From the NCBI GenBank assembly GCA_964547365.1, contig CAZJMP010000001.1, positions 1-60,728 on the forward strand: a DNA stretch of 60,728 nucleotides. Direction: 5' to 3'. A program made the translations under genes and the position numbers. Within the stretch, counting starts at the first letter, position 1; the number at the start of each line of letters is the position of its first letter. Below, piece after piece: positions 233 to 57,940 of the stretch. The DNA comes from an uncultured Candidatus Peribacteria bacterium. Its GTDB lineage: Bacteria > Patescibacteriota > Gracilibacteria > Absconditabacterales > Absconditicoccaceae. Below the pieces are notes generated by a model. That model saw nothing but the letters and a program-made list of their open reading frames with translations, did not search any database and was not told the DNA's origin.

Positions 233-243
233 CTGACTGTGAT

Positions 244-360
244 ACTATCCAGAGTGGACGATAGAGACTAGGCTCGTTAAGCGTCCCGGCAACCTTCCAG
301 AGGCAGGTAAACTTCCATTGGGAACGGTGCCAATTCCTACCCTCACGGGAAAGATATGAG
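244..360 (+). promoter_or_regulatory. SAM-I (S-box) riboswitch aptamer
   Basis: S-box core blocks in the canonical order: tatccAGAGtgg, CCCGGCAACC (285-294), GGTGCCAATTCC (326-337), P4 hairpin ccctcacggg, closing GAAAGATAtGAG. Lies directly 5' of metK. Confidence 0.75.
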
Positions 361-2261: not shown

Positions 2262-2417
2262 CTATTTATAATGTATGTAAAAATCTACATTACTATAAAA
2301 AAGCTTTTCAAACTTTTTCCAGAAAGTAGGGATGTCGTAGATAACTATTCCTTGCGAAAACTTCCTGATTGACTATAGTCTTTGGGAAGTTTTTTTTATT
2401 CTCTTTGTAATCATTCT

Positions 2418-3359
2418 ATGCTACTTTCGTGAAAAGATTTGTCTGTTGCGTTCAAACAGAAACTGATAGAAAAAAGAGCCAAGATATTCGGTGAGACAAA
2501 AGCGTACGTCGCTATCATTTTCTTGTGAGACGATTATTCTTCTGCTACCTATGTGAAACATAAGAAAGCGTACGGCGACTCCATCGGTTTGCCGGTCATT
2601 GTTTTTTGACAGAATCATCAGGCTGAATATGATAGGAATCAAGCTGGGAAATTCGATGATGTCGGTATCTATATCAATCAGAAATATGATAATGTTTGAA
2701 AAATCATGGAGCTTATCAGATATCTCAATCATGACGATGAATGTGCCGGTATCATCATCCAGCTACCATTACCTGAGCAATTCGAGCCATACAAAGAACA
2801 GTTGTTGGCTGCTATCACTCCGCAAAAAGATTTAGATTGACTCGGAGGCGTGATTCTCTGACTTTCTGAGATAGGACTTGTAGACTTTGTTCCTGCTACT
2901 CCGAAGGCGGTATTGTATCTCCTTGAACAGTACAAACTCGATGATTTCAGAGGCAAAACGATTGCTATTCTCGGTCAAAGCAATATCGTCGGCAAACCGC
3001 TCGCTATCGAATGTATCAAGAGATGAGCAACGGTCTATACCTGCAATTCTACTACACCTCCTGAACAGATCAAAACCATTGCGAAGATGGCTGACTATAT
3101 CATTTCCTCTACAGGGAAAGTGCATCTGATCGATGATTCATTTGTTCGTGATGACAAGACTCAGATCATCGTCGATGTCGGTTATGGACATATCGATGGC
3201 AAACCGGTCGGTGATGTAAACATTGAAACCATACAAGACAAAGTCGCTTCGTATACGCCGGTTCCTGGTGGAGTAGGGCCGCTTACGGTGGCGTGCATTT
3301 TCGATAATGTATTCACTTTACAAACTTATCAGGATGTATTGAAACCATATAAACTCTAA
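2418..3359 (+). CDS. folD: Bifunctional methylenetetrahydrofolate dehydrogenase/cyclohydrolase
   Basis: MLLSGKDLSVAFKQKL.., VAIIFLGDD..SATYVKHKKK, IIIQLPLP, ILGQSNIVGKPL, TPVPGGVGPLTVA. Several TGA codons fall at Gly positions. Confidence 0.93.
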
Positions 3360-7494: not shown

Positions 7495-10488
7495 TTACTT
7501 TTGTGCTCGTACTACTTTCTGTTCGCCATTGATCTCCTTGAATTCTTTGGCTTTTACCTTGATCTTGTCGCCGATGTTGTAGTATTTTTTTCGTTCAACT
7601 CCGGCTGGAGCGACGATGAAATTCTTGTGGAGCAATCCTTCGACTCCTTTGACCGTAACGAACATTCCATAGTTGTACATCAGCTTGATGTATCCATCAT
7701 ATTCCTTTCCGATCCTGATATCTTTGATGCTGAAAGTGCCGTTGTCGTGGATTATCTCTCCTTCGTATGCAGGTGTTTTGATAATAGGTTCCGCTGCTGT
7801 TGCTGTCGGTGCAGCTGCTGGAGCGATGCCTTTTATTTTTTCTAGTTTCGCGATGTTCGGACAGAATTTGAAATAATCCTGTTTTTTTGCTCCTGCTTGT
7901 TTGTAGATATCATTCAATTGTTCGAGGGCGCGTTCTTTCTTTCCTATCCGGATCATCAATGGTCCGCCATTGTTTTCTATCTGTATGGTTTGGTGCTGAT
8001 AGATATCTACATGGACAGGTATCTCTGTCTCTTTTCCGAAACTTACTTTACCGCCGATCTCGTATTTGAGATTTGCTTGATCTTCTAATCATTTTGGTTT
8101 GCCATACCGGATCGCTTTGTGTGAATAGTACTCGGTATCGAAGATAATCGCATCTGGTTCTTCGCCGTCGATAGCGAATTCCGTGAAGTATGACGCGTGT
8201 TGTTCGACAAACATATCATGTAAATTTTCTACTTCTTCTTCTGTTATTCATAATGATTCCAATCTTGCTTTCTCCATGACTTTTTCTTGGACGGAGAATG
8301 TCTTGTTTGATCGCGCTGCCATAAGTTTTTCGAGCTGTCCTCTTTCCATTGCATATCTTTGTCTTGATTGTTTCCTTACTTTATCGATCAATTCCAATGA
8401 TCCTTCTCCAAGTTTTATCGGAGGCAATGTTTTCATCGAAAATGGATCTGATGAAATACCGTCGATCATCAGTCTGGTATAGGTCGTATATTTCGGCAAA
8501 GAAATCAGATCATTGACACTTGCCATTTCTTTGAATTGTCCCGTGATGATATCTGCATCATCTTTTCCTAAGGTAAATGCAACTGTTGTACCTACATTTC
8601 CAAAGATGGCATCTTTTGTCTTTTCATCGAGCTGTGCAGTATATTGGTTGGCGACGATAAGTGCTAACTTATATTTTCTCGCTTCTGAAAGGATAGTCGC
8701 GAATGATTCTGACGCGAAATTCTGGAACTCATCGATGTAGAGATAGAACGGTCTTCTTTCATGCGCTGCGATATTCGCTCTGGACATGGCATCGATCTGG
8801 AATTTCGTTACGAGCAATGATCCGATCATATTTGCATTATCTTCTCCGATCTTTCCTTTTGAGAGATTGACGAGCAGGATTTTTCCTTCATCCATCGCAT
8901 TTCTCAGATTGAGTTTTGTTCTTGGCTGACCAAAAATATTTCTGACCAATTTGGACGAAAGGAATTGTCCGACCTTGTTGGTGATAGGACCGATCGCTTC
9001 TTCCCTCTGTTTTGGCTGCCATTTATTGAATTCGCCTGTTCGGAATTTCAGGACGACTGGATCCTTGATATATGACATCACTTCCGTGCGGAAGTTATCA
9101 TCAATAAGCATTCTCAAAATATGCATGAGTGTCGCGTTCGGATAATCTACTAGCGAAAGCGCTACATTTCTCAATATGTATTCCAATCTTGGTCACCAGC
9201 TATCGCCGAAGAGTTTCTTGAATGTGGAAACAACACCTGATGCGATCAGGTTCTTTTCTTCTTCGGTCGCTCCTTGTAGCAGATTGAATCCGATAGGGTA
9301 GTCCGTATCTCCTACGTCGAATAGGATGACATCATTGATTCTATGTGTCGGAATATGTTCCAATATATTGTCTACAAGTTCACCATGCGGATCGAGCAAT
9401 GCGAGTCCATTTCCAGCTGCCATATCGCTTTTGAGAAGGTTCTCTATGAACGTAGATTTACCGGTACCGGTTTTTCCTACGATATACATATGTCTGAATT
9501 TATCTTCTTCCTTGATTCAAAATGTTATTTTTTCTCCTCTATAATCGGTGTATCCGAGTACCGTCAATTTTTTTGGATCGGTATTTTTTGTCGTAGGCAT
9601 GTTGGTAGGATATGCTAGCTTCCTGTAAAGGGTGTATTCTAATCCTTTGACGAAATTTTCCATCGTCGGGATGTGAAAGAAATTCACCGCTTGGGAATGC
9701 ATCATGCCGTGAAATTTTTCAGATGTCTTTATTTTTATTTTTCCGTTGGAGCTGAATGGAGCGAATGCTGCTACGATATTTTTTTTGAGATTCTCTCTGG
9801 CGTATTGATCTTTGGTCATGATCTTGTAACTGAATGATCCGTAGATTTCTGGCTTTTCTTCCTTGGGTTTTTCTATCGGCGTTCCGTCAGGATTTTTCTT
9901 TTTTGGTTCTCGGATCCGTTTGAAAATAGCATTCATATGTTGCAGAAAATTCTTCTCCAATTTGAACGTATAGGTAAAATAGATATCGAGCCTGGAATTT
10001 TGATCGACCATATTGTAGAGAGAAAAAATACCGTTCATAGGATCCATGTAGGTACCGCCTCTAGTGAATTCCTCTTTGGTAAGTAAGGTCCCTTCTTTGT
10101 CGAATTGCAATCGTTCTTTTCTTTGCGCTATCGGAAACGGTTCTTTCATCTCCTGGATATCTGAAGTAGGGAAACTCGTGTAGAACGTATTCTCGAAATA
10201 GGTTTTGAAATCTCTTGGTACTCCTACATAGAGTTTGATATCTATCGCATTTCCGCTGATGATGAACTTGATGTGTTTTTTCTTGAGGCTGATGATATTT
10301 TTGCTTATAGTATCTCGATGGTTTACTCCATGATCGTTGTCCTTGAATGGTTTAATATGAAAAAAAACATAGCCCTTGCTTTGTTCTTCGGAAATTTGCG
10401 TTCCTGGTATTTTTTGGGTGATGTTTCTTGGTTTGGTTGTGGTCGCTCAGGCAAGCATTTTGCCTAGTTTCTCTGCGTGTTTTAACAT
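7495..10488 (-). CDS. VirD4/TraD-like (T4SS coupling protein-type) P-loop ATPase with a C-terminal S1 RNA/ssDNA-binding domain (997 aa)
   Basis: Four track ORFs (9517..10149, 9193..9489, 8248..9186, 7495..7959) plus 10150..10488 share one frame joined by TGA codons. Walker A GKTGTGKST, LLDPHGEL, Walker B YIDEFQNF, ARKYKLALIVANQ. C-terminal S1 fold GKEYDGYI..YGMFVTVKGVEGLLHKN..IGDKIKVK. Confidence 0.8.
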
Positions 10489-11551: not shown

Positions 11552-11866
11552 CTAGTGTTGTTTTGCTTTTACGATTTGGAATCCTTTCCTGATTTTGAAC
11601 TCGAATGGACAAGGTATTGTCTTGGTCCTTTTCGAAATCATATAATCCAAGAAGCTTTTTAGGATTTCAGCGGCCATACAATTCATATCATCATTGATGG
11701 CTGACCATATTGCCTTTTCGAAGAAGTTTAATTCGCCGATAATCTCATCTTTTTCTTGAAGAGGTGTTGGCGAGTCAATAAAAGGAACAGTCCCTTCGAT
11801 GAATTTTCTTAGAAATTCGTATGATAAAAGGGAAATCCCTAATTCATTACATTGTTTTGCGTCCAT
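11552..11866 (-). CDS. Hypothetical protein (104 aa)
   Basis: Intact ORF ending in TAG, with its own terminator. Confidence 0.5.
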   Translation of the reverse strand: MDAKQCNELGISLLSYEFLRKFIEGTVPFIDSPTPLQEKDEIIGELNFFEKAIWSAINDDMNCMAAEILKSFLDYMISKRTKTIPCPFEFKIRKGFQIVKAKQH

Positions 11867-11981
11867 ATTTTTTTGTTTTATTCTATGAATAGAATATATA
11901 TATTTTTATATTAATGTCAAGTAAATGTTTTTTCGTGGTTGGATGCACTGTGTGTTTTTGTTATCAAAAATTTCTGAGTAT

Positions 11982-12015
11982 AAAAAAACACCTCTCTGGA
12001 AAGCCAGAAGAGGCG
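11982..12015 (-). terminator. Intrinsic terminator of the 12053..12352 gene
   Basis: cctctctgg-aaag-ccagaagagg hairpin plus a T-run on the minus strand. Confidence 0.6.
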
Positions 12016-12052
12016 TGCTCGTTACGATTCTGAGCCAGGGAATCTCACGAGA

Positions 12053-12352
12053 TTAACAATGAATAAGTCCTAATTCTTTGATTGCTTCATCAGCGTCTAC
12101 TCCTTTGTGATAGAGTTCTCCTAGATATCCAACCTTTTTGTCGAATGCACATATTTTTATCACACATGCAATTAGAATATATCCACATATCATTATGATA
12201 TACATGAGGCTGAATAATGGCTTCCATTCAAAGTAGAATGACGCATAGAATGCTATCGCTGCGAACAGAGCAGGCATTATTATTAATAACAGATCCTTCA
12301 CCAAAGAACTTATCAATAAGTTCTTAACTTCAACAAATTCAAAATTTCTCAT
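12053..12352 (-). CDS. Small membrane protein (99 aa, 2 TM)
   Basis: Intact ORF ending in TAA, with two hydrophobic helices. Confidence 0.5.
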   Translation of the reverse strand: MRNFEFVEVKNLLISSLVKDLLLIIMPALFAAIAFYASFYFEWKPLFSLMYIIMICGYILIACVIKICAFDKKVGYLGELYHKGVDADEAIKELGLIHC

Positions 12353-13911: not shown

Positions 13912-15048
13912 ATGACAGAAACAGAAGAACAGAAAACACAAGAGTATAAACCGGGTCCGATCGATGGTATGATCGTATCTACATTGCAATCCATGGACAG
14001 AGGAAGTTTTTGAACCAAGGATAAGATTCTCTTTTTCAAGGAATTGGCATATCTCTTGAACGGAGGAGTCTCTTTAGTAGATAGTATGAATATCATCGGT
14101 GAAAGTTCAGATAACTATGCACTCAAAGAAATCTCCAGAAATATCTTGGCATTTTTGCGCAAAGGTAAAAGCTTTTCATATGCGCTCAATAGACTGCCTG
14201 ATTATTTCGATCAGGGCGATTACACCATCGTCAAGGCAGGAGAGATGTCCGGTAATCTGCCTATGATCCTGCAATCATTATCCAATGAATATGTGTATAT
14301 CAAAGAGATGAAAAATAAATATATTTGAGCATTGATGTATCCTATGATTCTTGTCGTCATTTCTATCGTAGCGGTATTCGCCTTGTTCTTGTTGGTTTTG
14401 CCTGGTATTTTCTCTATAGCGACAAGTTTCCAGAATCTCGAATTGCCATGGATTACCAGAGCTTTACATGATACTTCGGTCTTTTTCCAAACACAACGGA
14501 AACTCATGCTTGGAATTATCGCTGGATTATGACTTGTCGGTGGCGTATTCTTCTCTACTGATCTCGGAAAGAAAACTCGGTTCAGTATCTTGCTCTGAAT
14601 CCCGTTGATTGGTAAGATGACAAAATATTTCTATCTCGTAAAATTCTGCAGATATACCAAACTGATGATGGCTGCCGGCATGAATTATCTCCAGACTTTT
14701 AGTTTGCTTAGGGATATCCTCGGCATCTCTGCGTATCAGAATATGATCGAACGTGTCGTCACGGGATTGAACAAATGAGAAACCATCTATTCTACTTTAC
14801 AATATGAAACAGATCTGATTCCTTCCGATGTAGCTGTGATGATCAAGGTCGGCGAGGAAACGGCGAATCTTTCCAACTCTTTGGATAATGTCCTCAAGAT
14901 GTATGAGGAGGATCTCAATGTCCTGATCGGTCGTTCGTCCAAAATCATTGAGCCAGTTATGTTGGTCGGTGTCTGAGGCGTGATTCTTGTCATCGCATTA
15001 GGAATCTTTGGATTGATTTTGCAGATCATGGAAGGTGCAGGATTATAA
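13912..15048 (+). CDS. pilC: Type IV pilus/T2SS platform protein (GspF/PilC family)
   Basis: Two GspF repeats: FFKELAYLLNGGVSL.DSM, GD.TIVKAGEMSGNL, IEPVMLVG[V]GGVILVIAL. Track ORFs 14044.. and 14332.. are in frame. Confidence 0.9.
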
Positions 15049-15051
15049 AAT

Positions 15052-15170
15052 GAATTCAGAATGCAGAATTCAAAATTTAGAATGTAGAATTCAGAATTTA
15101 GAATGTAGAATTTAGAATGTAGAATGTAGAATTCAGAATTTAGAATTTAGAATGTAAAATTCAGAAATAG
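15052..15170. repeat. 17-unit tandem heptamer array GAAT[T/G][T/C]A
   Basis: gaattca gaatgca gaattca aaattta gaatgta gaattca gaattta gaatgta gaattta gaatgta gaatgta gaattca gaattta gaattta gaatgta aaattca gaaatag. Begins 3 nt after the pilC stop. Confidence 0.95.
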
Positions 15171-15171
15171 A

Positions 15172-15198
15172 AAAACTGTCGGTGAAGACAGTTTTTTC
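15172..15198 (+). terminator. Intrinsic terminator after pilC and the repeat array
   Basis: actgtc-ggtgaa-gacagt hairpin plus a T-run. Confidence 0.7.
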
Positions 15199-15255
15199 GT
15201 TGAAAGCGAAAGTATAATGATTACATATGCATAGTGATTTATATTCGTTTATACT

Positions 15256-15750
15256 ATGAGAAAAGCATTTACGCTTATAGAGATAGTCATCGTATTGTTG
15301 GTGATCGGCATATTGATGGGAGCGACCATGAGGTTCTGATCCAATCGTATCACGGATCTCAAGGCACAGACGATCAAAGAGCAATTCGTCGGGCGATATA
15401 ACGATCTCTATAGTCAGAATATGACCTCGAGTTTCCACAATGGACAGAAATATGAAAAGATGACCGTCGTTCTTGGACAGCCATTCTTTTATCTTTTGGA
15501 TGCGGCATCATTCACTGACTCGATTATCACGTGATATCAGCTGACCAAGTTCCGTTTCCAGCCTGAAGGAACAACTTTTACCACCGCCAATCTTGTGTTT
15601 GCTCCGTATAAGCTCTGATGCAATATCTTAGATAACGACAATCCATGAGATCGTCTTTATTTCGATTTTATCGTTCCTGAGAACGGCAAAAAATATTGTT
15701 TTGAAATTCCTTCAGAAACCTGTAAATTAATCGAAAATCGTTGTGATTAA
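15256..15750 (+). CDS. Prepilin-type (pseudo)pilin 1
   Basis: N-terminal MRKAFTLIEIVIVLLVIGIL, the prepilin cleavage/methylation motif. Confidence 0.8.
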
Positions 15751-15778
15751 TTGAAAAATTTAGTTTATGAATCCATAT

Positions 15779-16420
15779 ATGAAAAAGAAATCTGCATTTA
15801 CGTTTATAGAAGTGATCATTGCGATCTCTGTTTTTGCTGTAGGCGTGCTTGCGGTTTTGCGTCTCATCACCCAGAATCTTGTGACTTTGGATATCACGGA
15901 AGCGCGTACGACCTCCACATTCCTCGCAAAGGAATGAATAGAGCTTGTCTACAATATGAGAGATTCCAATATCCAAAAATCTTTGCCGCGGGATTGTGTC
16001 ATGTATACTGAACTTGAAACGTGAGATTGGAATGAAATAGATCCTGAACATATTTGCATGCGGTATTTTGCTTCATGAACCGAAGATAAGCAAATGCTGC
16101 AAATCTCTTTTGCACCTGAAGGATATAGCTATACCCATATTGTCGAACAATGAACATGATTCGAATCATTACGGAACGATAATAGGTTGTATTATACCAC
16201 CTGATCGATTGCAAATAAGGATTTGTTCCGATATTCCAATCTTCCTGTAGAAGGGCAGGAACCTACGACATTTGCTAGATATATTGTCTTTGATGTCGTT
16301 CGTGAATGAGACAAGATATTGCCGCCAAATAAAATCCTCAAAATAGAATCCCATGTTGCATACATGAAGGGAACAAAAACCGGTGAAATAGTCCTGGAAA
16401 GTTTTATTTGAAAATATTAG
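15779..16420 (+). CDS. Prepilin-type (pseudo)pilin 2
   Basis: MKKKSAFTFIEVIIAISVFAVGVLA. Many TGA=Gly codons. Ends in TAG. Confidence 0.75.
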
Positions 16421-16423
16421 TGC

Positions 16424-17053
16424 ATGAAAAGGAAGTGAATGACTTTGCTTGAACTCGTAATCGTGATGGCTATTCTCGGTATCCTTTTTGTATTGCTGTT
16501 GAGGACGTACAATCGGATTTCTACCATGGTGTTTCGTGTTCAACAAGAAAAGGAAGTCGCTCAGGAAATATTGCAGATATCTCAGACGGTCCAAAATCTC
16601 GCTGATAGAAATGCTATCGATTACACCAAATATTCAGGAGTAGGAAATACGTGAGAAGAAATGAGTTTAGTTTCTACTGACGGAATCACTTCTGTTCTCT
16701 ATCTCAGCGGATTGGATGGCCAAGTGACATTGTACACCACAGGCGATTGTCTTAGTCCTAGTATAGAATATGCGTTTACCGGTGCTTGATCATGATGCTC
16801 GTTGTTTGTTGATGTCTGAGGCAAAACCAGAGAACTCATCAATTCCAAGAAAGTGCTCATCAGCGAAGTCGTTTTCAAGATCATCCCTTACGCTTCTGAA
16901 CAGCAATATATAGATACAGACAATCTTTGTGCAGGAAATTATCTCCAGTGTCTCAATAGCCCATGATTCCGGATGATATTCACTGCGTATAGCGTCAATT
17001 ATTGAACTCAGCGAGCCACTCATGTGCGTGTGCCGTTCCAACAATTTTTTTAA
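16424..17053 (+). CDS. Prepilin-type (pseudo)pilin 3
   Basis: MKRK[G]MTLLELVIVMAILGIL. In frame with track ORF 16439..16654. Confidence 0.75.
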
Positions 17054-17100
17054 TGAGTTCAGAGTTTAGAATTCAGCGTGCAGAATTTAGAATCTAATAT
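17054..17100. repeat. Heptamer repeat spacer
   Basis: gttcaga gtttaga attcagc gtgcaga atttaga atctaat. Confidence 0.7.
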
Positions 17101-17107
17101 ATCTTTT

Positions 17108-18028
17108 ATGGAGAAGAAGTGAAATATCAGCATATTAGTGATCTTTGTTTTACTAGCGTCGTCGTTGCTAGGGGTTTTGTCGATGAATTTCGTGCAGCAG
17201 ATGATGAGACAATCAGCAGTCGTACATTCGTATTATAGTTCTTATTATTTGGCGAAAGCCGGCGTAGAGCTTGGATTGGCGCAGATCGTCAATCGCGGTG
17301 TGGGCTTTGAACGTGTGGTCGGTAGCGGTGATGCTGTCATGTCCGGCAATTTCCTTTGCGGAGATCGTTGTGCTTTGTCGGTATCTATTTCTGGGACATC
17401 AACGATGCTCTCCAAAGCATTCCGGCAGGGCAGCGGATGCACCTCTCCGTATGTTTTGAGCGGTGGTGATTCTGTCATCATCCCATTGTTTAGGGATGTG
17501 ACTCCATGAACGGTAGCGGATATGTTTGCATCTTGAGTTGTCTATGAAAATCTTGCTCAGATCTTCAAGAATGATTGGATATCTTTCGATACGGAATTCG
17601 GCGGTGACGTCAATTTCGGTATCCTTATCTTGTCCGGCGATGATCTTTCGGAGAACGGCATCTTTTTTCAGAAATGAAATTTAAAATCCTGACTTACCGC
17701 ATTTAGGGAGGCTTTTGAACAATATCTATGAACCATAGATTCCGGTTTGTATCCTTTGGATGCTCAACTAAAAAACAATTATGATAAATCTCGATTGGTA
17801 GATAATGGATACAAGATGTATCTTCTTATTTCCAATACTAGTTCTGCGGAAGAACAATTTTGTGCTTCTGTCGTCCAGCCACAACAAGCTCCTACGGTAT
17901 ATGTGTTGCCTACCGATAGTTTCTTTGTCAGTAGCCAAGCATCTTATGGCAATCAATATGTAGCGCTTGATGCTTCATATGCACAACCTATTCCTGGTTT
18001 CTTGTTTAGTACATATTCTTCTTTCTAG
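17108..18028 (+). CDS. PilX/GspK-like minor pilin (306 aa)
   Basis: N-terminal hydrophobic anchor ISILVIFVLLASSLLGVLSM.F..Q. Track ORFs 17138.. and 17747.. are in frame. Last gene of the pilin block. Confidence 0.55.
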
Positions 18029-19487: not shown

Positions 19488-19517
19488 CCGGCTGGTCTTT
19501 CCAGCCGGGTTTTTTTT
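19488..19517 (+). terminator. Intrinsic terminator of purB
   Basis: ccggctgg-tcttt-ccagccgg hairpin plus a T-run. Confidence 0.8.
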
Positions 19518-23980: not shown

Positions 23981-24253
23981 ATGACTTTGGAAACGTACAG
24001 AAAAAAAATAGATCAGATAGATCATCAACTTATCGATCTTCTTGCTCAAAGATTCACGGTTGTAAAATCCATACGCGAATATAAAAACACTCATAAAATT
24101 CCTCCTTTGGATCTTTCCAGATGGGCTAGTGTATTGGCTTCCATTAAAAAATTTGCCAAGAAAAAATGATTATCCGAAACGTTTGTCACTGATCTTCGAG
24201 AACGTATCCACAAGGAATCCTTATTGTTGCAAAAAATAAAAAAATCCGCCTAG
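23981..24253 (+). CDS. Chorismate mutase (AroQ type, 90 aa)
   Basis: YRKKIDQIDHQLIDLLAQRF..V..I..YK. Continues through one TGA to a TAG stop. Confidence 0.75.
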
Positions 24254-24268
24254 GCGGATTTTTTTTAT
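24238..24268. terminator. Bidirectional terminator
   Basis: aaaaaaatccgcctaggcggatttttttt, a perfect palindrome. Confidence 0.8.
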
Positions 24269-24280
24269 CCTCAAGAGAGA

Positions 24281-24613
24281 TTATTTCTTGATCTTGACTG
24301 CAGCTCGTCCAACCAATTTCTTAGCAGGTTTTTTAGCAGCAGGTTTTTTTGCCTTCTTAACTTTTTTAGGAGCTTTTTTCTTGGCAACCTTCTTAACTTT
24401 TTTAGGAGCTTTTTTCTTAGCAACCTTCTTAGCTGGTTTCTTAGCAGCTTTCTTAGCTGGTTTTTTAGCAGCTTTTTTAGCAACTTTCTTTACAGCTTTT
24501 TTAGCAGGTTTCTTAGCAACCTTTTTAGCAGCTTTTTTAGCTGGTTTCTTAGCAACTTTTTTAGCAACTTTCTTTACAGCTTTTTTTGCAGCTGGTTTTT
24601 TCTTTGCAACCAT
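24281..24613 (-). CDS. Histone H1-like Lys/Ala-rich nucleoid protein (110 aa)
   Basis: MVAKKKPAAKKAVKKVAKKVAKKPAKKAAKK... AKKP/AKKV repeats. The start is set at the internal Met of track ORF 24281..24685. Confidence 0.7.
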   Translation of the reverse strand: MVAKKKPAAKKAVKKVAKKVAKKPAKKAAKKVAKKPAKKAVKKVAKKAAKKPAKKAAKKPAKKVAKKKAPKKVKKVAKKKAPKKVKKAKKPAAKKPAKKLVGRAAVKIKK

Positions 24614-24823
24614 TGTGAGTAGATAATAAGAGAATAAAAAAGAGATATAACACATCAGATATATGCTATTTAGTAGTAATTGCAAGAGAAAATGAATGAG
24701 AAGAAAATTTTTTTTTGTAATGTGTATCTATTGCAATCACTCTTTTTACCTAGTATTTCCTTGCTCTTATTTTTTTGCAAAAAAACCTTTTCAAAAAAAA
24801 TAAAAAAATAAAAAATTTTTTTT

Positions 24824-24850
24824 AAAAAAAACCGGCAACGCCGGTTTTTC
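24824..24850. terminator. Bidirectional terminator
   Basis: accgg-caacg-ccggt hairpin flanked by an A-run and a T-run. Confidence 0.55.
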
Positions 24851-24870
24851 CCATAGAATGAAAATTTACA

Positions 24871-24969
24871 TTATTTCTTGCATTTGCAGCAGCATCCTTT
24901 TTTAGCAGCTGTTTTTTTAGCAGCAGGTTTTTTTGCTGCCATTTTTTTCACTGGTTTCTTGACTACCAT
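24871..24969 (-). CDS. Small basic protein (32 aa) with a C-terminal Cys cluster
   Basis: MVVKKPVKKMAAKKPAAKKTAAKKGCCCKCKK. Lies in tandem with the H1-like gene and has its own terminator. Confidence 0.4.
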   Translation of the reverse strand: MVVKKPVKKMAAKKPAAKKTAAKKGCCCKCKK

Positions 24970-35835: not shown

Positions 35836-38800
35836 TTATGCAGCAGGTGTAGCTGGTGGAGGTACTTGTATTGTAGGAGCCTGCTGTGGAGTAGGTTGAG
35901 CTGTCGGTGCTGAAACAGCTGTTTCTTCTGATCTTTTTTCCGTTATCGGTACGTGCGGTGCTTCCAATTTCGGTTGAATCGCTGCGACTTTCTCTGCTTC
36001 CGCTGCGGCTATTTTTTCCGCTTCCGTCTGTTCAGGCAGTTTAGTCTCATCCGTAGTTATGCCCAATCTCGCTTCCATCTCTGCATCTACGAATTCTCTC
36101 TTCCTTCCATATTTTTTTGCTGAATATTCTTTGAGGATAGGTACAATTTTTTTGTTCTGATAATCTTTGGTATAGATCATATTCATGCTGAATGCACGTG
36201 TAGTTGCGTTATCGATATTTAATTTGATATATGCTTTATAGTTCGCGATACCTACGATATCTTCCTGTGAAAGCACTGGTGCATATTCTTTTTCCAAGAA
36301 TTCCGCATCGGGTGCACCCACTTTGAATGATTGCATCGTACCCACGTTACCGAATACCGCTGCTTTAACATCGTTTTTTCCTCCTCCTACATCGCCCAAT
36401 CATTTTGGCGGTTCGAGCTGAGCGATATATTGGTGAGCCATGATGAGTGAAAGTCTGTATTTTCTCGCTTCTGAGAGGATATCTGCGAATGTTCCCGAAA
36501 CGAAGTTCTGGAATTCATCCACATAGAGAAAAAAGTCTTTTCTATCTTTTTCTTCCATTCTCGCTCTTGCCATTGCTGCGGTATAGATTTTTGATACGAT
36601 GATCATACCAAGCAAGTTCGCGTTCAATTCACCGATCTTACCTTTGCTGAGATTGATGATGAGAACTTTTTTGTTGTCCATCACGTCTTCAAATTTGAAA
36701 GCTGATTTTGTCTGTCCGATGATGTTCCTGATCAATCTATTCGTATTGAACGATACAAATTTTGCTGAGAAGTATGGGATGATCTCTTGTTTCTCTCTGT
36801 CTCCCATAGCATTGAATGTTCTATCCCGCCGATTCTTTACGGTAGGGTTCGTTATCTTTTTGATCTTGTATTCCCTATATCATTCATCCGTGAAGAGTCT
36901 TACAACATCCAAAAGCGTCGGTCTGTCCTCGAAGTCTTCAAGTAGTGTCAGTGATCAGTATTTGAAATATTCTTGCAATCTCGGACCGAAGATCTCTGGT
37001 CAGAACATTTTGATGAATATTTCTGTGGCATCATTGACGACTCTATCTGCCTCATCTAAGATATTGATTTCAAACATATTCAATCCCATAGGTCTTTCTT
37101 CATCGCCTGCATCAAAATAAATCACGTCTTTTGCTCTCTCTTTTGGAATATATGCCAGCATATCTTCCGCGAGATCTCCATGCGGATCTATTAGACAAAT
37201 TCCATCTCCATTTCGTATATCTTGTCTCGCTATCGTCTGCAAAAATACGGATTTTCAGGTACCTGATTTTCCTATACAGTAATGATGTCTCATCCTATCA
37301 TCTCTTTTCATATAGACGGGTGAGAGCGTATTTCTGAAGATATTCGTTCCTATGAGGATCGCATCTTTGAAAAGCTTATATCCTAGACCTTTTTTTTGTA
37401 CTACCGTTTTTACGAATTTCTTTCCATCTTTTTCGATGATCTCTTTCCCGATGAGATCTTTTTCTGTATATTTCTCTATCGGATCAAGAATTTCTTCGTT
37501 GCGCATTATTTCGCCGGTTGCTCGATGCTTGCTGTATTCCTGGAGAATGATATCAAGTTTACCTCATTTGTAACTTTCTGCCAATACTCCTCACATAACA
37601 TAACCATTCGCTTCTTTAGGAATAGGAAGATTCTCAGGAGCAGGAAGTACCTTGTATTGCATCCAAGAAATGATAGGAGAACGGTTATATGTTGCATCAG
37701 GGAAATGAAATAATGATGTGAGTTCGTTTATTCCGAAAGTGTTTTTTTTGAATCAGAATCTTGTGATGAAATTATTTACTGCAACTTTCCATAATGGTTT
37801 CAAAAGCCATCAGAATAAGTCTGTTTTTCCTTGCGGTTCTATCAATTCATTTCCGTATTCGTCTCCGTAGATGGTTAACGAACTTACCACTAAATCCATA
37901 TTCTTCTCTAGATTTTCCTTTTCGTCGGAACTTGTGGTGATCAACATTCATGAATTGAAAAACGGTAGTGCTGATTCCTCTCCCATTGCATTGAGATAGT
38001 CTTCTTTTGCTTTGACCATACGCACCATGGTTACCGTTTCTTCTTCTTTCTTGTTGCTCAAGAGTTTTTCGCTCGGTCCATGGATGAGAAATCCTATGAG
38101 TTTCCATGGCATGATAAAATATGTCCATCGTGCATTGCTTGTTCCGCGAAGAGAAAGGTTCTTGTAAAGTCTATCTACTGCTTTTTGTGATTTTTTATTG
38201 AATCGATCTCCCAATGGTTTGATTGGAATGATAATGCTTAGGGTGTCATATCTTGAAATCTTTCCGATAGAATCGATGATATTGTTCATCGGATCATCCG
38301 GCTGCTGTTTGAAAGTCTTGATGTTGTAGAGCTGGTCTCTTTTTGGTTCTATAGGTATCACATCTGTATATCTTTTTTTGAAAAATTTTGGTTTGCTTGT
38401 CCTTTCTATCGAGCAATTAGGGAATTGCGCTGAAATAGCTCCTTCTAGCACTTGTTGATATTCTGGATACGTTCCTATGATAAAGTTGAGCTGTCATTCT
38501 TCATAATGGTAAATCATTGTCGTTTTCGGTTTATCGAAAATCTTTCTCATCAGATTCTCTTTCATGCTAAGTGCTCAGATTTTATGAAAATTGTGAAATA
38601 CCAACGCCATACGTCATATTTTTTCTTTCATGTCTTTTGCTAATTCTTTTTCTTGTTCACGGTCTAGTTTGCTTTGTCCTCTTGGAAGCAATATCTTGAG
38701 ATAAATAATCCTTCACGAATTGAAAACGTCGTAGAAGAATCTCAGCATATTCTTGATGATAATAAGCAATATGAGTGTCCCTATTGTAATCAATACTCCG

Positions 38801-39150
38801 TTTAGCGCGTATTGTCCGTATTCTGTCACTATTGCTTTCCGTCCTGTTTCTGTGCTAGTACTTGCTGTCACTTGTGTTTCTTTTTGGTCTTTTTCGCTTG
38901 GTGTGGTTGTGAATCACGGTCCTGTCGTACTTACTGGAGGAGTATAGTTTTTATGTAATAGGAAATTCTTGATTTGTGTCGTACCTCCCATGAGTTGCAT
39001 ACAAGTAAGTTTATTGGTCCCTCGTGCATTGCTGGTCAATTGAGAAATATTCTCCAAGGCTGCTGGATTTTTATTGTATGCGTTCTGTATCTGTTGCTCA
39101 CACATTCCTAATTCCATACTTTGTTTAGCTGAAAGATTAAAGCCCGCCAT
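35836..39150 (-). CDS. VirD4/TraD-like coupling-type P-loop ATPase, membrane-anchored paralog (about 1104 aa)
   Basis: Seven track ORFs between 35836 and 39201 lie in one frame. TM helix NGVLITIGTLILLIII, YLKILLPRG.. N-domain, GKSGTGKS-type P-loop region, LIDPHGDL, YVDEFQNF, ARKYRLSLIMAHQ. Pro/Ala/Gln-rich tail. ATG at 39150 (alternative TTG at 39201). Confidence 0.75.
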
Positions 39151-40886: not shown

Positions 40887-42305
40887 ATGAATTTAACACT
40901 CAAAACATATATCAACGACAAGAAACTTGTTGCTAAGGATGTCGTGAAAGGCTGCATGGAGAAAGCAAAAACATTGAATGCTGACTATTTTTCCTTTGTG
41001 AGATTCCATGATGACTATGTAGCTGCCCATCTCGACGAATTTGCTTCGAAACCGTTGAAGGCTGCACCTATTTGAATTAAGGACATTATTCTGACTCAAG
41101 AGTATATTACTTCATGCTGATCGAAAATACTTGAAGAGTATGTAAGTCCGTATAGCGCTACCTGTTTTTTGAACTTAGAGAAAAACGGAGGATTGATGAT
41201 CGGAAAAACGAATATGGACGAATTTGCGATGGGTTCCTCTACAGAAACATCATATTTCGGCAAGACGAAAAATATCTACGGAAAAGATAGAAGCCCTGGA
41301 TGAAGTTCTGGATGATCTGCGGTTGCTGTCGCTTCATGAGCGTGTTTAGCTGCATTGGGAACTGATACCTGAGGAAGCATTCGTCAGCCTGCTGCATGGT
41401 GCGGTATTGTCTGAATGAAGCCTACCTATGGTATGGTTTCTCGTTATGGCGTACAATCTATGGCTTCGAGTCTAGATCAAGTTGGTGTCTTTACGAACAC
41501 TGTTGAGGATGCAGAGATCTTATTGAAAGCCATAGCTGGATTCGATCCAAAAGATTCACAGAGTGATCCGAGAGCGGATGAATTTGTAAATTCAGAATTC
41601 AAAATTCAGAGTTCAGAGATAAAAAAATTTAAAGTTTGAGTGCCGAAAGAAGCATTAGGAGAATGATTAGACCCTCAAATAAAGGCATTATTTCTTGCAA
41701 CTATTGATAAACTTCGTGCAAACGATATTGTAGTCGACGATATCTCATTGCCGATGATGGCGTATGCTGTTCCCATGTATTATACTTTGATGCCTGCGGA
41801 AGTAAGTACGAATTTGGCGAGATTTGACGGTATCAAATACTGACTTCAGTCTGATAGCCTGAATGCTGATACTATACAAAAATATTATGAAAACATTAGA
41901 TCCGAATGATTTGGTGATGAGGTCAAGAGAAGGATATTGCTCGGTACTTTTGTTTTGAGCTCAGCTAACTATGAAGGATATTATCTCAAGGCTCAGAAGG
42001 CAAGAGAGGAGTTGCAGGCAGAGTTTGACAAAACATTTGCAAACTATGATATTATTCTTACACCTACTACACCTGAGGCAGCATGGAAGCTCGGTGCAAA
42101 AAATGACGATCCTTTGAAAATGTATTTAGCTGATATGTACACTATCCCTGCCAATATGGCGTGATTGCCAGCCATGTCTGTTCCTATGGGTATGGTTGAG
42201 GATCAAGGGGAAAAGCTACCTGCATGAATACAACTTATGGCAGATAAGCGAGCTGAGAGCAAGCTTTTCGGGTTTGGTTGTTATCTCGAAAAATTACTTG
42301 CGTAA
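40887..42305 (+). CDS. gatA: Glutamyl-tRNA(Gln) amidotransferase subunit A
   Basis: Amidase signature [18 protein letters not shown][G]SSG[G]SAVAVAS (TGA at 41301 and 41313), GTDT[G][17 protein letters not shown]. Confidence 0.95.
41588..41618. repeat. Heptamer array inside the gatA coding sequence
   Basis: aaattca gaattca aaattca gagttca gag encodes [11 protein letters not shown] in a variable GatA linker. Confidence 0.85.
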
Positions 42306-42327
42306 ACAAAAGAATTAATTACAACAT

Positions 42328-42399
42328 GGTCCGGTCGTTTAGTGGATAGGACACAACCCTGCGAAGGTTGTAACCCCGGTTCGACTCCGGGTCGGGCCG
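42328..42399 (+). tRNA. tRNA-Arg (anticodon GCG)
   Basis: Hand-folded cloverleaf: acceptor GGTCCGG/TCGGGCC, anticodon arm CAACC-CTGCGAA-GGTTG, T arm CCCGG-TTCGACT-CCGGG. Confidence 0.8.
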
Positions 42400-42411
42400 A
42401 ATGAATACTAT

Positions 42412-42473
42412 GGGTGATTAGCTCAGTTGGCTACCCCGCAGCGAGTGCGGGGCTCGTTCCACTCGGAGCGTTT
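42412..42473 (+). other. Pseudo-copy of the tRNA-Val 5' part (nt 1-30) with a 32-nt insertion in the D-loop
   Basis: GGGTGATTAGCTCAGTTGGCTA (identical to tRNA-Val 1-22), then 32 nt (42434-42465, containing hairpin ccccgca-gcgag-tgcgggg), then GAGCGTTT (tRNA-Val 23-30). The 5' leader tactat is also duplicated. Confidence 0.7.
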
Positions 42474-42492
42474 TGAAAGATTATATTACTAT

Positions 42493-42569
42493 GGGTGATT
42501 AGCTCAGTTGGCTAGAGCGTTTGCTTGACGTGCAAAAGGTCACAGGTTCGACTCCTGTATCACCCACCA
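42493..42569 (+). tRNA. tRNA-Val (anticodon GAC), CCA encoded
   Basis: GGGTGAT/ATCACCC acceptor, TTTGC-TTGACGT-GCAAA anticodon arm, ACAGG-TTCGACT-CCTGT T arm, ACCA 3' end. Confidence 0.9.
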
Positions 42570-42615
42570 TCAAATCTGGCTTACTACCAGGTTTTTTTTG
42601 TTATTTTCATGTTAC

Positions 42616-42643
42616 TTGACAAATATGCTTCAATAAATATAAT
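42616..42643 (+). promoter_or_regulatory. Consensus promoter
   Basis: ttgaca, 16-nt spacer, tataat. Confidence 0.5.
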
Positions 42644-42674: not shown

Positions 42675-43535
42675 ATGATGAAGAAAAAAGATTCTTTATC
42701 TCAGCAACATGTCGAGGATATATGATTTGAACATTCTTCAGATTCAGGCATGCTTTCAAAAAAAGATAAACTTTCTCGTAAACAAAATTTGATGAAGCTT
42801 TTTTTGACTTCAGATATCAAGAATACAAAATTATGGAAACCACTTCAGTCTGTTAAAGAAAACATGATCAAAAATTTCCATGATTGAGGCTTTGATTCTT
42901 CAGATGTAGATAAACTGTTCCGGATATATTTTAATGAACATAAGGATGTATTCATACCAAAACACCTCAAGGGACGTATTACTCATTTCAAGGTATTTGT
43001 TTCTCAAATGCCTAATAACACTAAGCTTGCTCTCCATGAATATCTCTATGTTCTTAGTAATGTGAGGAAACAAATAGATGATTTTATAGTTGCTATAGAA
43101 CCACTGAAGAAAGCAGCTCATGATTATGCAAATGTGGAAATGAAAGAGGCTTTGGAAGAAGATATCTATACTGACTTTGATCGTGATGCTAAACAACAGC
43201 AGTATCGTGCTTTGGCTAAAGCGAAATTCTCTGATCTTATGCAAGCGTCGCCAGATGTATCTTATGATCGAGATCGATTCCAGCAGGGAATGTCTGTATT
43301 GCCAGATACACGACGTCTCAATACTTATAAGGATCTTACTGTTTTCGCTTTGTTAGGATTTCATTATTTTGATAAAAAAGATCTTGTATATTCTACTTTC
43401 TCTGATCAGCAGCTTGAAGAGGAACTTGTCTTTGATTTACCAAAATACCAGCCTGACAAGGTATCGCTCACTCTTGAAGAATACCTTCATCTCATAGAAA
43501 AACTCGATTTCAAGAATAAAGCATTTTCTTTCTAA
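42675..43535 (+). CDS. Hypothetical protein (286 aa)
   Basis: The frame of track ORFs 42525.. and 43008.. is continuous through two TGA codons. Start set at MMKKK, downstream of the promoter. Confidence 0.5.
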
Positions 43536-45001: not shown

Positions 45002-45041
45002 GGATTATCTATGCAATAAAAAATTCCTAGCATATTATGTC

Positions 45042-45123
45042 TGCCGTCGGGGGGACTCGAACCCCCAAGTCTTGCGACATACGTACCTGAAACGTACGTG
45101 TATACCAATTCCACCACGACGGC
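45042..45123 (-). tRNA. tRNA-Leu (anticodon CAG), class II long variable arm, no encoded CCA
   Basis: GCCGTCG-TG-GTGGAATTGGTATACAC-G-TACGT-TTCAGGT-ACGTA-TGTCGCAAGACTT-GGGGG-TTCGAGT-CCCCC-CGACGGC-A. Collinear with E. coli tRNA-Leu(CAG). Confidence 0.9.
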
Positions 45124-45136
45124 ATGTATAATTGAA

Positions 45137-45204
45137 GCCTATCGTGGTGTATACCAACCTTGCTAAAGCAAGGCCCTGCTTCAGCAGGGTTCCACCACGA
45201 CGGC
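45137..45204 (-). other. Pseudo-copy of the tRNA-Leu 5' part (nt 1-26) with a 32-nt double-hairpin insertion in the D-loop
   Basis: Minus strand: GCCGTCGTGGTGGAA, then ccctgctgaagcaggg and ccttgctttagcaagg (32 nt, 45158-45189), then TTGGTATACAC, then CACGATAGGC, which pairs back to the 5' end. A further hairpin gcccgctatagcgggc lies at 45210-45225. Confidence 0.7.
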
Positions 45205-45238
45205 TTGTTGCCCGCTATAGCGGGCAGATAGCTGGTGA

Positions 45239-57853: not shown

Positions 57854-57940
57854 TGGTACCCAGAGGGGGACTTGAACCCCCACGACCTTACGGTCACCAG
57901 ATTTTGAGTCTAGCATGTCTACCAATTCCATCATCTGGGC
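57854..57940 (-). tRNA. tRNA-Leu (anticodon CAA), CCA encoded
   Basis: GCCCAGA-TG-ATGGAATTGGTAGACAT-G-CTAGA-CTCAAAA-TCTGG-TGACCGTAAGGTCGT-GGGGG-TTCAAGT-CCCCC-TCTGGGT-ACCA. Confidence 0.9.

Follow-up and report, generated by a model that had tools for sequence, protein, structure and literature searches.

Tiny palindromic elements are known from several settings: the repetitive extragenic palindromic (REP) sequences and REPINs that occur with REP-associated tyrosine transposases (RAYTs), the small dispersed repeats of cyanobacteria, the palindromic elements of Rickettsia, and the GC clusters and double-hairpin elements of mitochondria. Integrases leave scars that copy the 3' end of a tRNA gene, as the initial annotation of the DNA analyzed here correctly remarked. 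The GIY-YIG enzyme SegB, encoded in a phage tRNA cluster, cuts within tRNA genes and thereby leads to segmental amplification of the tRNA locus via homologous recombination (PMC13096335). Here we describe two 81-nt units in a 60,728-nt stretch of DNA (contig CAZJMP010000001.1 of an uncultured bacterium; hereafter, the window), each of which lies just upstream of a live tRNA gene, tRNA-Val(GAC) or tRNA-Leu(CAG), and combines the 5' part of that tRNA with GC-rich hairpins. We read these units as pseudo-tRNAs, relics of local tandem duplication of the adjoining tRNA in a birth-and-death turnover that extends across the SR1 lineage, and hold this reading to be about evenly balanced between right and wrong.

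At tRNA-Val, positions 42406-42433 were identified by a repeat finder as an exact 28-nt direct repeat of 42487-42514, at a spacing of 81 nt, for which our arithmetic gives a chance expectation of about 3e-8 in 60.7 kb. This repeat bears out the initial annotation, which had described 42412-42433 as a copy of tRNA-Val nt 1-22 together with a duplicated TACTAT leader; the 19 nt that it gave between the copy and the intact gene hold as well, as does its observation of the same layout at tRNA-Leu(CAG), where nt 1-15, a 32-nt insert, and nt 16-26 recur with a period of 81 nt. Four tRNAs were called in the window by ARAGORN and Rfam: Arg(GCG), Val(GAC), Leu(CAG), and Leu(CAA). We rejected a functional tRNA gene as the identity of either unit, both programs calling only 42493-42569 and 45041-45124 at the two loci, and no Rfam hit was obtained on 42406-42492 or 45125-45208 at the gathering threshold or at E ≤ 5. 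The components of both units and their surroundings are listed in Table 1.

Table 1. Components of the two pseudo-tRNA units and adjoining features of the window (nt numbering within tRNAs is that of the corresponding live gene).
Feature	Positions	Strand	Evidence or comment
gatA (genetic code 25)	40887-42305	+	ORF under code 25
Live tRNA-Arg(GCG), first in the tRNA cluster, 24 nt past the gatA stop	42327-42400	+	ARAGORN, Rfam
Pseudo-Val 5' segment: duplicated leader TACTAT and tRNA-Val nt 1-22 (acceptor 5' strand, D-stem 5' strand, D-loop)	42406-42433	+	
GC hairpin module CCCCGCA-GCGAG-TGCGGGG (CCCCGCAGCGAGTGCGGGG; 19 nt, perfect 7-bp stem), directly after D-loop ...GGCTA	42434-42452	+	
Remainder of the 32-nt Val insert, CTCGTTCCACTCG; with the preceding CGGGG resembles the T-loop module of the L084 downstream pseudo-Val	42453-42465	+	Local alignment
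GAGCGTTT, possibly tRNA-Val nt 23-30 (D-stem 3' strand onward)	42466-42473	+	8-nt exact match, spacing 49
19-nt AT-rich spacer and live-gene leader; ATTACT pairs weakly with pseudo 5' strand GGUGAU	42474-42492	+	
Live tRNA-Val(GAC), CCA encoded	42493-42569	+	ARAGORN; Rfam, 71 bits
Intrinsic terminator closing the gatA / tRNA-Arg / pseudo-Val / tRNA-Val unit	42572-42604	+	Terminator scan
Live tRNA-Leu(CAG)	45041-45124	-	ARAGORN, Rfam; 100% identical to the L084 copy
Spacer (~23 nt) from pseudo-Leu to live gene; its 5' part CACGATAGGC (45146-45137) pairs with the pseudo-Leu 5' strand, closing a 12-bp stem	45125-45146	-	
Pseudo-Leu segment equal to tRNA-Leu nt 16-26 (TTGGTATACAC)	45147-45157	-	11-nt exact repeat, spacing 49
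32-nt double hairpin CCCTGC-TGAA-GCAGGG and CCTTGC-TTTA-GCAAGG (two 16-nt hairpins), D-loop 15/16, directly 5' of TTGG	45158-45189	-	
Pseudo-Leu 5' segment: about 4 nt of leader and tRNA-Leu nt 1-15 (45204-45190)	45190-45208	-	19-nt repeat (95%), spacing 81
Hairpin TGCCCGC-TATA-GCGGGCA after the DUF5652 gene, kept in relatives; outside the pseudo-tRNA	45209-45226	-	Pfam (DUF5652)
tRNA-Leu(CAA)	57854-57940	-	ARAGORN, Rfam

The window derives from an SR1/Absconditabacteria-type genome with genetic code 25, in which UGA is read as glycine. Translation table 11 breaks up its open reading frames (ORFs), tables 4 and 25 leave them intact, reading TGA through lifts ORF coverage of the window from 0.35 to about 1.4, and code 25 was assigned because TGA stands at the conserved glycine positions of the GatA motifs GGSSGG and GTDTGGS. 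The tRNA-Arg of the window has the anticodon GCG rather than ACG, as has been reported for Absconditabacteria and the Candidate Phyla Radiation (CPR). Syntenic relatives, referred to below by locus handles, were collected through GatA homologues at 75-85% identity (L082/L083, L084, L085, L086, L091, L092, L093-L095, and L096), L088 and L089 came from a metagenome scan with a double hairpin (described below) as query, and L097, L099, and L102 were retrieved with the GIY-YIG protein of L089. A separate contig scan with GatA returned 79 loci from phyla unrelated to SR1, plus a single SR1 locus that was not syntenic and had no tRNAs. Counting exact partial copies of at least 14 nt lying at most 400 nt from a tRNA, we found them at 12 of the 31 tRNAs in the 14 related SR1 loci versus none of the 14 tRNAs in the 79 non-SR1 loci; these counts are indicative only, the SR1 sample being small, orthologous in part, and in the case of L088 and L089 ascertained by the hairpin pattern.

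The partial copies take several forms. A 5' pseudo-Val identical to that of the window occurs in L084, which carries a second pseudo-Val 3' of the live gene, without nt 1-9 and with a 32-nt double hairpin before TTGG and a T-loop module of ~22 nt. L082 has the same downstream pseudo-Val and, 1.5 kb away, two further pieces whose T arm has given way to CCCCGTAGTCCTACGGGG, a hairpin also carried by three tandem 3' pseudo-Val mini-units in L096. A pseudo-Arg lies between gatA and tRNA-Arg in L082, L085, L086, L091, and L096, its anticodon arm swapped for TCCGCC..GGCGGA or TCCCGA....TCGGGA and CCAGCC..GGCTGG added in the T arm, and L092 has a 3' pseudo-Arg downstream of tRNA-Arg. The syntenic tRNA-Leu slot of L088 holds only a full-length pseudo-Leu, with a double hairpin at 15/16 and the anticodon loop replaced by CCCCGCAGTACTGCGGGG. 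In L089, L097, L099, and L102, a pseudo-Met has CCCCGAC..TTCGGGG in place of the D-stem 3' strand and the anticodon-stem 5' strand. The pattern is therefore wider than first annotated, including 3' pseudo-copies downstream of live genes as well as anticodon- and T-arm modules.

Across these relatives, insert lengths range from 14 to 33 nt, periods of 71 and 87 nt occur beside the two of 81 nt in the window, and breakpoints fall at nt 26, 30, about 47, about 50, and about 53. Such variable breakpoints and periods fit duplication and decay and do not fit a site-specific recombinase; we likewise dropped the 81-nt period as a mechanistic constant. The initial annotation had proposed that variable insert lengths among relatives would point to chance decay. 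The lengths do vary, yet chance degeneration is evidently excluded as an account of the pattern, because there are many further examples and the same hairpin modules recur in them.

Some observations on these loci stand apart from the question of origin. The hairpin-riddled pseudo-Leu of L088 (9745-9860, minus strand) occupies the tRNA-Leu(CAG) slot with no tRNA within 11.6 kb; this genome may no longer have tRNA-Leu(CAG), or may have it at another location. A 92-nt 'tRNA-Arg' called by ARAGORN in L086 (11536-11627) is really a pseudo-Arg with three hairpin insertions, and relics of this kind can inflate tRNA counts in such genomes. In the acceptor stem of the live tRNA-Val of L084 (11723-11799) and L091 (6637-6710), A6 is mismatched with C67 (5' GGGTGAT, 3' ACCACCC), where the window has A6-U67. 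Short AT-rich tandem repeats are present as a 17-nt unit, agagatatagatttgat, in L089 (3060-3180), and as units of ~24 nt (L096, 7430-7520) and ~14 nt (L084, 11410-11460) directly past the gatA stop.

The inserted modules are perfect GC-rich hairpins of 14-19 nt with stems of 6-8 bp, and they recur in pseudo-Val, pseudo-Met, pseudo-Leu, and pseudo-Arg. They are nearly confined to tRNA-derived relics and absent from live tRNAs. Sequence derived from tRNAs accounts for 3.2% of bases, and 29 of the 40 strong GC hairpins are located no more than 40 nt from it, with no live tRNA overlapped by any of them, a count that is again indicative only, given the partly orthologous and pattern-ascertained sample. 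For 9 of the 10 module patterns searched, every copy is in tRNA-derived sequence, only TCCGCC..GGCGGA being found elsewhere too. One 32-nt double hairpin, CCCTGCTAAAGCAGGGGGCTGCTTCAGCAGCC, is identical in pseudo-Val (L084, and one copy in L082) and pseudo-Met (L089), always directly 5' of the D-loop TTGG. The second L082 pseudo-Val carries it with a single loop difference (TGAA for TTCA), and a variant occupies the same D-loop place in the pseudo-Leu of the window and L088, where hairpin 1 is the same in both and hairpin 2 has changed by compensatory pairs. Searched for across the metagenomes, the double hairpin turned up only 4 times, in each case in the D-loop of a pseudo-tRNA. The suggestion in the initial annotation that the insert is the relic of a D-loop-targeting element is thus supported in part, by the recurrence of the double hairpin 5' of TTGG in three pseudo-tRNA types. 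Viral contigs gave 0 hits for the double hairpin and the T-arm module, and a looser pattern of D-loop plus hairpin gave 7 chance matches on them, in GC-rich phages.

The hairpin of the window's pseudo-Val shares its insertion point, after D-loop GGYTA, and its CCCCG...CGGGG form with the pseudo-Met hairpin of L089, L097, L099, and L102, in which the stem is conserved across the four genomes and the loop varies. A 32-nt insert with a hairpin is present at 42434-42465 as first annotated, but its description as a clean D-loop insertion is doubtful, part of it resembling the L084 T-loop module: CGGGGCTCGTTCC (42447-42459) matches the T-loop hairpin module of the L084 pseudo-Val over 13 nt with 1 mismatch, a match reached in 3 of 500 shuffles. 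The 8-nt resumption of tRNA sequence after the insert is also there (42466-42473), but is not significant alone, as an equal local score arose in 43 of 500 shuffles. Because of the T-loop match and the weak resumption, the Val unit may be a mosaic rather than a clean 32-nt insertion.

Several familiar structures were considered for the units and their hairpins and rejected. An integrase attachment-site scar was dismissed on the copying of the 5' part, the spacers of 19 and ~23 nt, and the lack of an integrase among the flanking ORFs; there is no integrase-type scar here. A group I intron would need a core of >200 nt in the anticodon loop, and the insert here is a D-loop sequence of just 32 nt that matches no intron in Rfam. 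Promoter duplication was rejected on a sigma-70 scan, which found no tRNA-cluster promoter inside or beside either unit and no promoter-like site between gatA and the tRNAs. A terminator role was rejected for the inserted hairpins, which lack the A/T-run flanks of ordinary terminators here; the window GC hairpins at 19488, 19529, 24244, and 24830 are ordinary bidirectional terminators with A/T runs, and the sole 'terminator' call in pseudo-Leu (45189-45174) falls on hairpin 1 of its double module. TCCGCCTAGGCGGA is both an ordinary window terminator and the same 14-mer that substitutes for the anticodon arm of the L091 pseudo-Arg. An origin of the palindromes from flanking tRNA sequence by hairpin opening, in the manner of P-nucleotides, was rejected in turn, the stems not being copies of the flanks.

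The tRNA-derived stretches of the relics track the live neighbor. In L082, the pseudo-Val body is 96% identical to that genome's own tRNA-Val and 85% to the window type, and in L084 it is 98% identical to its own type. That the tRNA-derived parts co-vary with the adjoining live gene while module and leader stay unchanged points to gene conversion and lends partial support to the idea in the initial annotation that the copy serves as a recombination substrate. The types of the live genes themselves do not follow the genome phylogeny, and a replaced type is still represented by relics. In the window and L084, tRNA-Arg and tRNA-Leu are 100% identical and the Arg-Val block 98%, versus 76-81% for coding DNA; L082, although closest to the window in coding DNA, shares just 70% identity with it over the Arg-Val block. 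The tRNA-Val and tRNA-Arg types (L082 11727-11803 versus window 42493-42569 for tRNA-Val) are thus discordant with GatA and coding similarity, which suggests horizontal replacement of tRNA genes. L082 retains relics 100% identical to the window-type tRNA-Val, and its live tRNA-Val is of the other type. Because of this discordance and these retained relics, tRNA genes appear to be turning over in the lineage.

Several points weigh against reading the units as relics, beyond the small and partly ascertained sample noted above. The window and L084 have the same pseudo-Val unit at 81 of 81 positions, 45-51 of which do not derive from tRNA, in genomes whose coding DNA is 76-81% (about 77%) identical and functional intergenic DNA about 75%; such identity is unexpected for junk DNA unless the block was recently exchanged. 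With 4 differences in the 245-nt block, the probability of none falling in the 81-nt unit is about 0.2, so selection and recent exchange are not separable. Direct repeats spaced 81 nt apart should be readily deleted by slippage and are still present in two diverged genomes, the pseudo-Met hairpin has been retained across genomes whose GIY-YIG proteins are 64-75% identical, and reduced CPR genomes usually purge dead DNA. The window has no nuclease gene (tblastn; Pfam) and no transposase (Pfam, 15 window ORFs), and one possible target-site duplication was seen (GTTCG, in L084) and none elsewhere.

Part of this evidence bears on a functional alternative, in which the unit is a selected, hairpin-locked spacer acting in cis in the tRNA precursor, as a processing or stability element, a folding insulator, or, in line with the processing or transcription decoy proposed in the initial annotation, a lure for enzymes or toxins by which the acceptor/D-arm side is recognized. 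Besides the 81/81 identity, it would account for the 52 nt of pseudo-Leu that are 92% identical to the homologous module of L088 where flanking genes are 67% identical, for stems kept while loops vary and the compensatory pairs of hairpin 2, and for modules that sit at cloverleaf loops or replace whole arms in the way that structured RNAs are remodelled. It also agrees with the predicted fold of pseudo-Leu, a closed 12-bp stem with two hairpins (-37.6 kcal/mol, z = -5.1), and with the position of the unit inside the gatA / tRNA / terminator transcription unit. However, the units are patchy: the window's pseudo-Val unit is missing in L082, L085, L086, L091, L093, and L096, and the whole 81-nt pseudo-Leu unit is absent from L084, L091, and L093. 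Insert length, breakpoint, side of the live gene, and copy number are inconstant, selection is not needed to maintain perfect palindromes, and no Rfam family matches. The loop of the T-arm module is inverted in L086 relative to L082 and L096, which hints at behavior at the DNA rather than the RNA level. Folds of the whole precursor indicate that the pseudo 5' strand can capture the 3' acceptor strand of the live tRNA in competition with the live 5' strand, a potential cost. We regard a selected cis-acting RNA as possible but doubtful.

A stronger form of selection can be imagined, in which a dedicated SR1 process installs sequence-specific GC hairpins at set positions of duplicated tRNA genes (the D-loop at 15/16, before TTGG, and at 21/22, after GGYTA, as well as the anticodon and T arms) and the products are selected as a new tRNA-derived RNA or DNA element. 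Such elements might be cleavage-immune decoys or repair templates against tRNA-gene nucleases, or decoys for tRNA toxins. This is, in our estimate, unlikely.

Nuclease genes lie beside tRNAs in several relatives. In L097, L099, and L102, an 85-amino-acid GIY-YIG ORF (3001-3258; Pfam PF01541) is placed precisely between two tRNA-Met sequences, on one side a 5' pseudo-Met made of nt 1-23, a hairpin, and nt 35-47, and on the other the live gene; L089 has the opposite arrangement, with the live gene first, then GIY-YIG (2299-2556, minus strand), then the pseudo-copy. L097 has a second pseudo-Met 13 nt from the live tRNA-Met. The ORF consists of the catalytic domain only and is found upstream of rpmG-rpsP, syntenic in at least four genomes at 64-75% identity, so that it looks resident rather than mobile. 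In L091, an ORF for a DUF559 (Vsr-like) nuclease (11778-12240, minus strand) abuts tRNA-Leu where the window has pseudo-Leu, and no pseudo-copy is present there. This ORF is preceded by a palindromic element resembling a miniature inverted-repeat transposable element (MITE) (CCCTCCCTTAACAGGGAGGG ... TCCCCCTGTTAAGGGGGA, with aaaccc/gggttt ends), and the same element occurs in L092 (7730-7850), where tRNA-Val is missing.

These genes invite a reading of the units as remnants of a lost cassette, of homing-endonuclease or integrative type, that restored the 5' part of the tRNA and displaced the old 5' part upstream before its body was deleted, leaving a spacer of 13-23 nt. The nesting of the GIY-YIG ORF at the Met locus, the DUF559 ORF at the very site of the window's pseudo-Leu, the second pseudo-Met of L097 with the geometry of the window, and the duplication of the leader along with the tRNA 5' part in the window all speak for it. 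Yet the breakpoint differs every time, so that the cases have no crossover site in common; synteny of the GIY-YIG gene is as described, with no empty site seen, and its 85-amino-acid product has no DNA-binding domain; the order is reversed in L089; 3' pseudo-copies downstream of live genes are equally common; and no integrase, nuclease, or transposase was found in the window by tblastn or, on 15 of its ORFs, by Pfam. We consider a lost cassette rather improbable. Break-driven duplication of tRNA genes is nevertheless plausible by analogy, because of the SegB precedent and the nuclease genes beside tRNAs in relatives.

Two further alternatives concern the inserts themselves. The unit might be a disrupted but functional tRNA, with a non-canonical intron of archaeal type or split into parts joined in trans, for the insert positions (D-loop 15/16 and 21/22, and the T-loop) recall those of non-canonical introns in Thermoproteales, and precursor folds let the pseudo 5' strand pair with the live 3' acceptor strand. 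Against this, an intact gene lies 13-23 nt downstream, the units have no anticodon or T arm, and the full-length version in L088 has a palindrome for an anticodon loop. The hairpins are self-contained, with no bulge-helix-bulge across the junctions on reading the sequence, and removal of the insert still leaves a unit without nt 27/31 onward; moreover, the tRNA splicing endonuclease (EndA) is not known from bacteria. This alternative is very improbable, close to refuted. We reject as scarcely credible both off-target integration of a spacer by a CRISPR system ('neo-CRISPR') and an assembly artefact. A length of 32 nt is typical of CRISPR spacers, but the inserts are palindromic modules common to loci and genomes rather than unique foreign sequence, and no duplicated repeat-length target flanks them. 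One contig (L081, 2.2 kb) does break inside tRNA-Val, but assemblies made independently from other samples (L084, an NCBI metagenome-assembled genome, and L082/L083) show the identical structure.

Under the favored reading of the units as relics of tandem duplication, the duplications would arise when DNA breaks at tRNA genes are repaired. Once dead, a copy would have its cloverleaf loops and arms enlarged or replaced by members of a small family of perfect GC hairpins, and would lose most of its 3' part. The modules would pass from one pseudo-copy to another either through recombination in the D-loop flanks that the copies share or by acting as tiny palindromic mobile elements, and gene conversion would keep the 5' stretches matched to those of the live tRNA. 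The relic would be co-transcribed with the live tRNA, and its hairpins and closing stem would lock it in an inert fold, from which the spare 5' strand should compete less with folding of the live tRNA; in this way the hairpins and closing stem may mitigate the cost of a captured 3' acceptor strand. On this reading, the unit is no tRNA and has a passive role at most.

Other features of the window were recorded in passing. A perfect consensus sigma-70 promoter (TTGACA, 16 nt, TATAAT; 42616-42643, plus strand) lies just past the tRNA-cluster terminator, before an ORF ending at 43535. An S-adenosylmethionine (SAM) riboswitch (Rfam RF00162, with a score of 44.5 bits, right at the gathering threshold; 242-360, plus strand) precedes a metK-like ORF (433-1557). 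A Lys/Ala-rich ORF of 124 amino acids resembling histone H1 (24281-24655, minus strand) is flanked by bidirectional terminators at 24244-24259 and 24830-24846, with a possible second K/A-rich reading frame at about 24870-24960. Two very large ATPase ORFs, of 997 and 1104 amino acids, occupy 7495-10488 and 35836-39150 (both minus strand), and orthologues of the latter in syntenic relatives give only faint Pfam hits to DUF87 or T4SS-DNA_transf. A putative cluster of type II secretion or type IV pilus-like genes (PilC-like, pseudopilins) was identified by eye at 13912-18028 (plus strand).

If the units are relics, the tRNA genes of a recoded, reduced CPR lineage duplicate, are replaced, and die rapidly, and a tiny family of GC hairpins specifically colonizes the dead copies. 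This matters for tRNA annotation in these genomes, as the miscalled pseudo-Arg of L086 illustrates, for the inference of codon reassignments from tRNA gene sets, and for how very small palindromes spread. If the units are functional, they would constitute a new kind of structured element derived from tRNAs, perhaps linked to conflicts between nucleases and tRNAs like the one shown for SegB. Our search of the literature on SR1/CPR and on bacterial tRNA pseudogenes found no prior description of hairpin-studded tRNA relics, and the window units are one instance of an apparently undescribed, lineage-wide class.

Among known systems, integrase attachment scars share with these units a partial direct tRNA repeat beside an intact copy, but here the repeat is of the 5' part, lies 13-23 nt away, has variable breakpoints and no integrase or island, and carries GC hairpins. 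Archaeal multi-intron, split, and permuted tRNAs likewise have extra sequence in the D-loop and T-loop, with inserts that seem to move between tRNA genes; the units differ in their bacterial lineage, in lacking a bulge-helix-bulge, and in being truncated or anticodon-less with an intact gene alongside. Tandem duplication and random loss in mitochondria offers a similar birth and death of copies that decay beside live tRNAs, but by point mutation and deletion, without recurrent GC hairpin modules. SegB (PMC13096335) is similar in that a GIY-YIG gene lies among tRNA genes and its breaks in tRNA genes lead to tandem duplication, and differs in being a full-length homing endonuclease of a phage, whereas the 85-amino-acid catalytic-domain form is encoded in cellular genomes. 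A nuclease gene adjoins a duplicated tRNA at the Met locus of L089, L097, L099, and L102, the only locus at which the SR1 GIY-YIG gene was seen; the gene is absent from the window. The modules resemble tiny palindromic elements in being short, perfect, GC-rich hairpins in an AT-rich genome, present in many copies, in the loops of structured RNAs, and partly in double-hairpin form. They differ from REP and MITE elements in being nearly confined to tRNA-derived sequence rather than dispersed over unrelated contexts; no consistent target-site duplication was seen, and no transposase is known for them. By analogy with these systems, the unit appears most like a tRNA pseudogene colonized by tiny palindromic elements.

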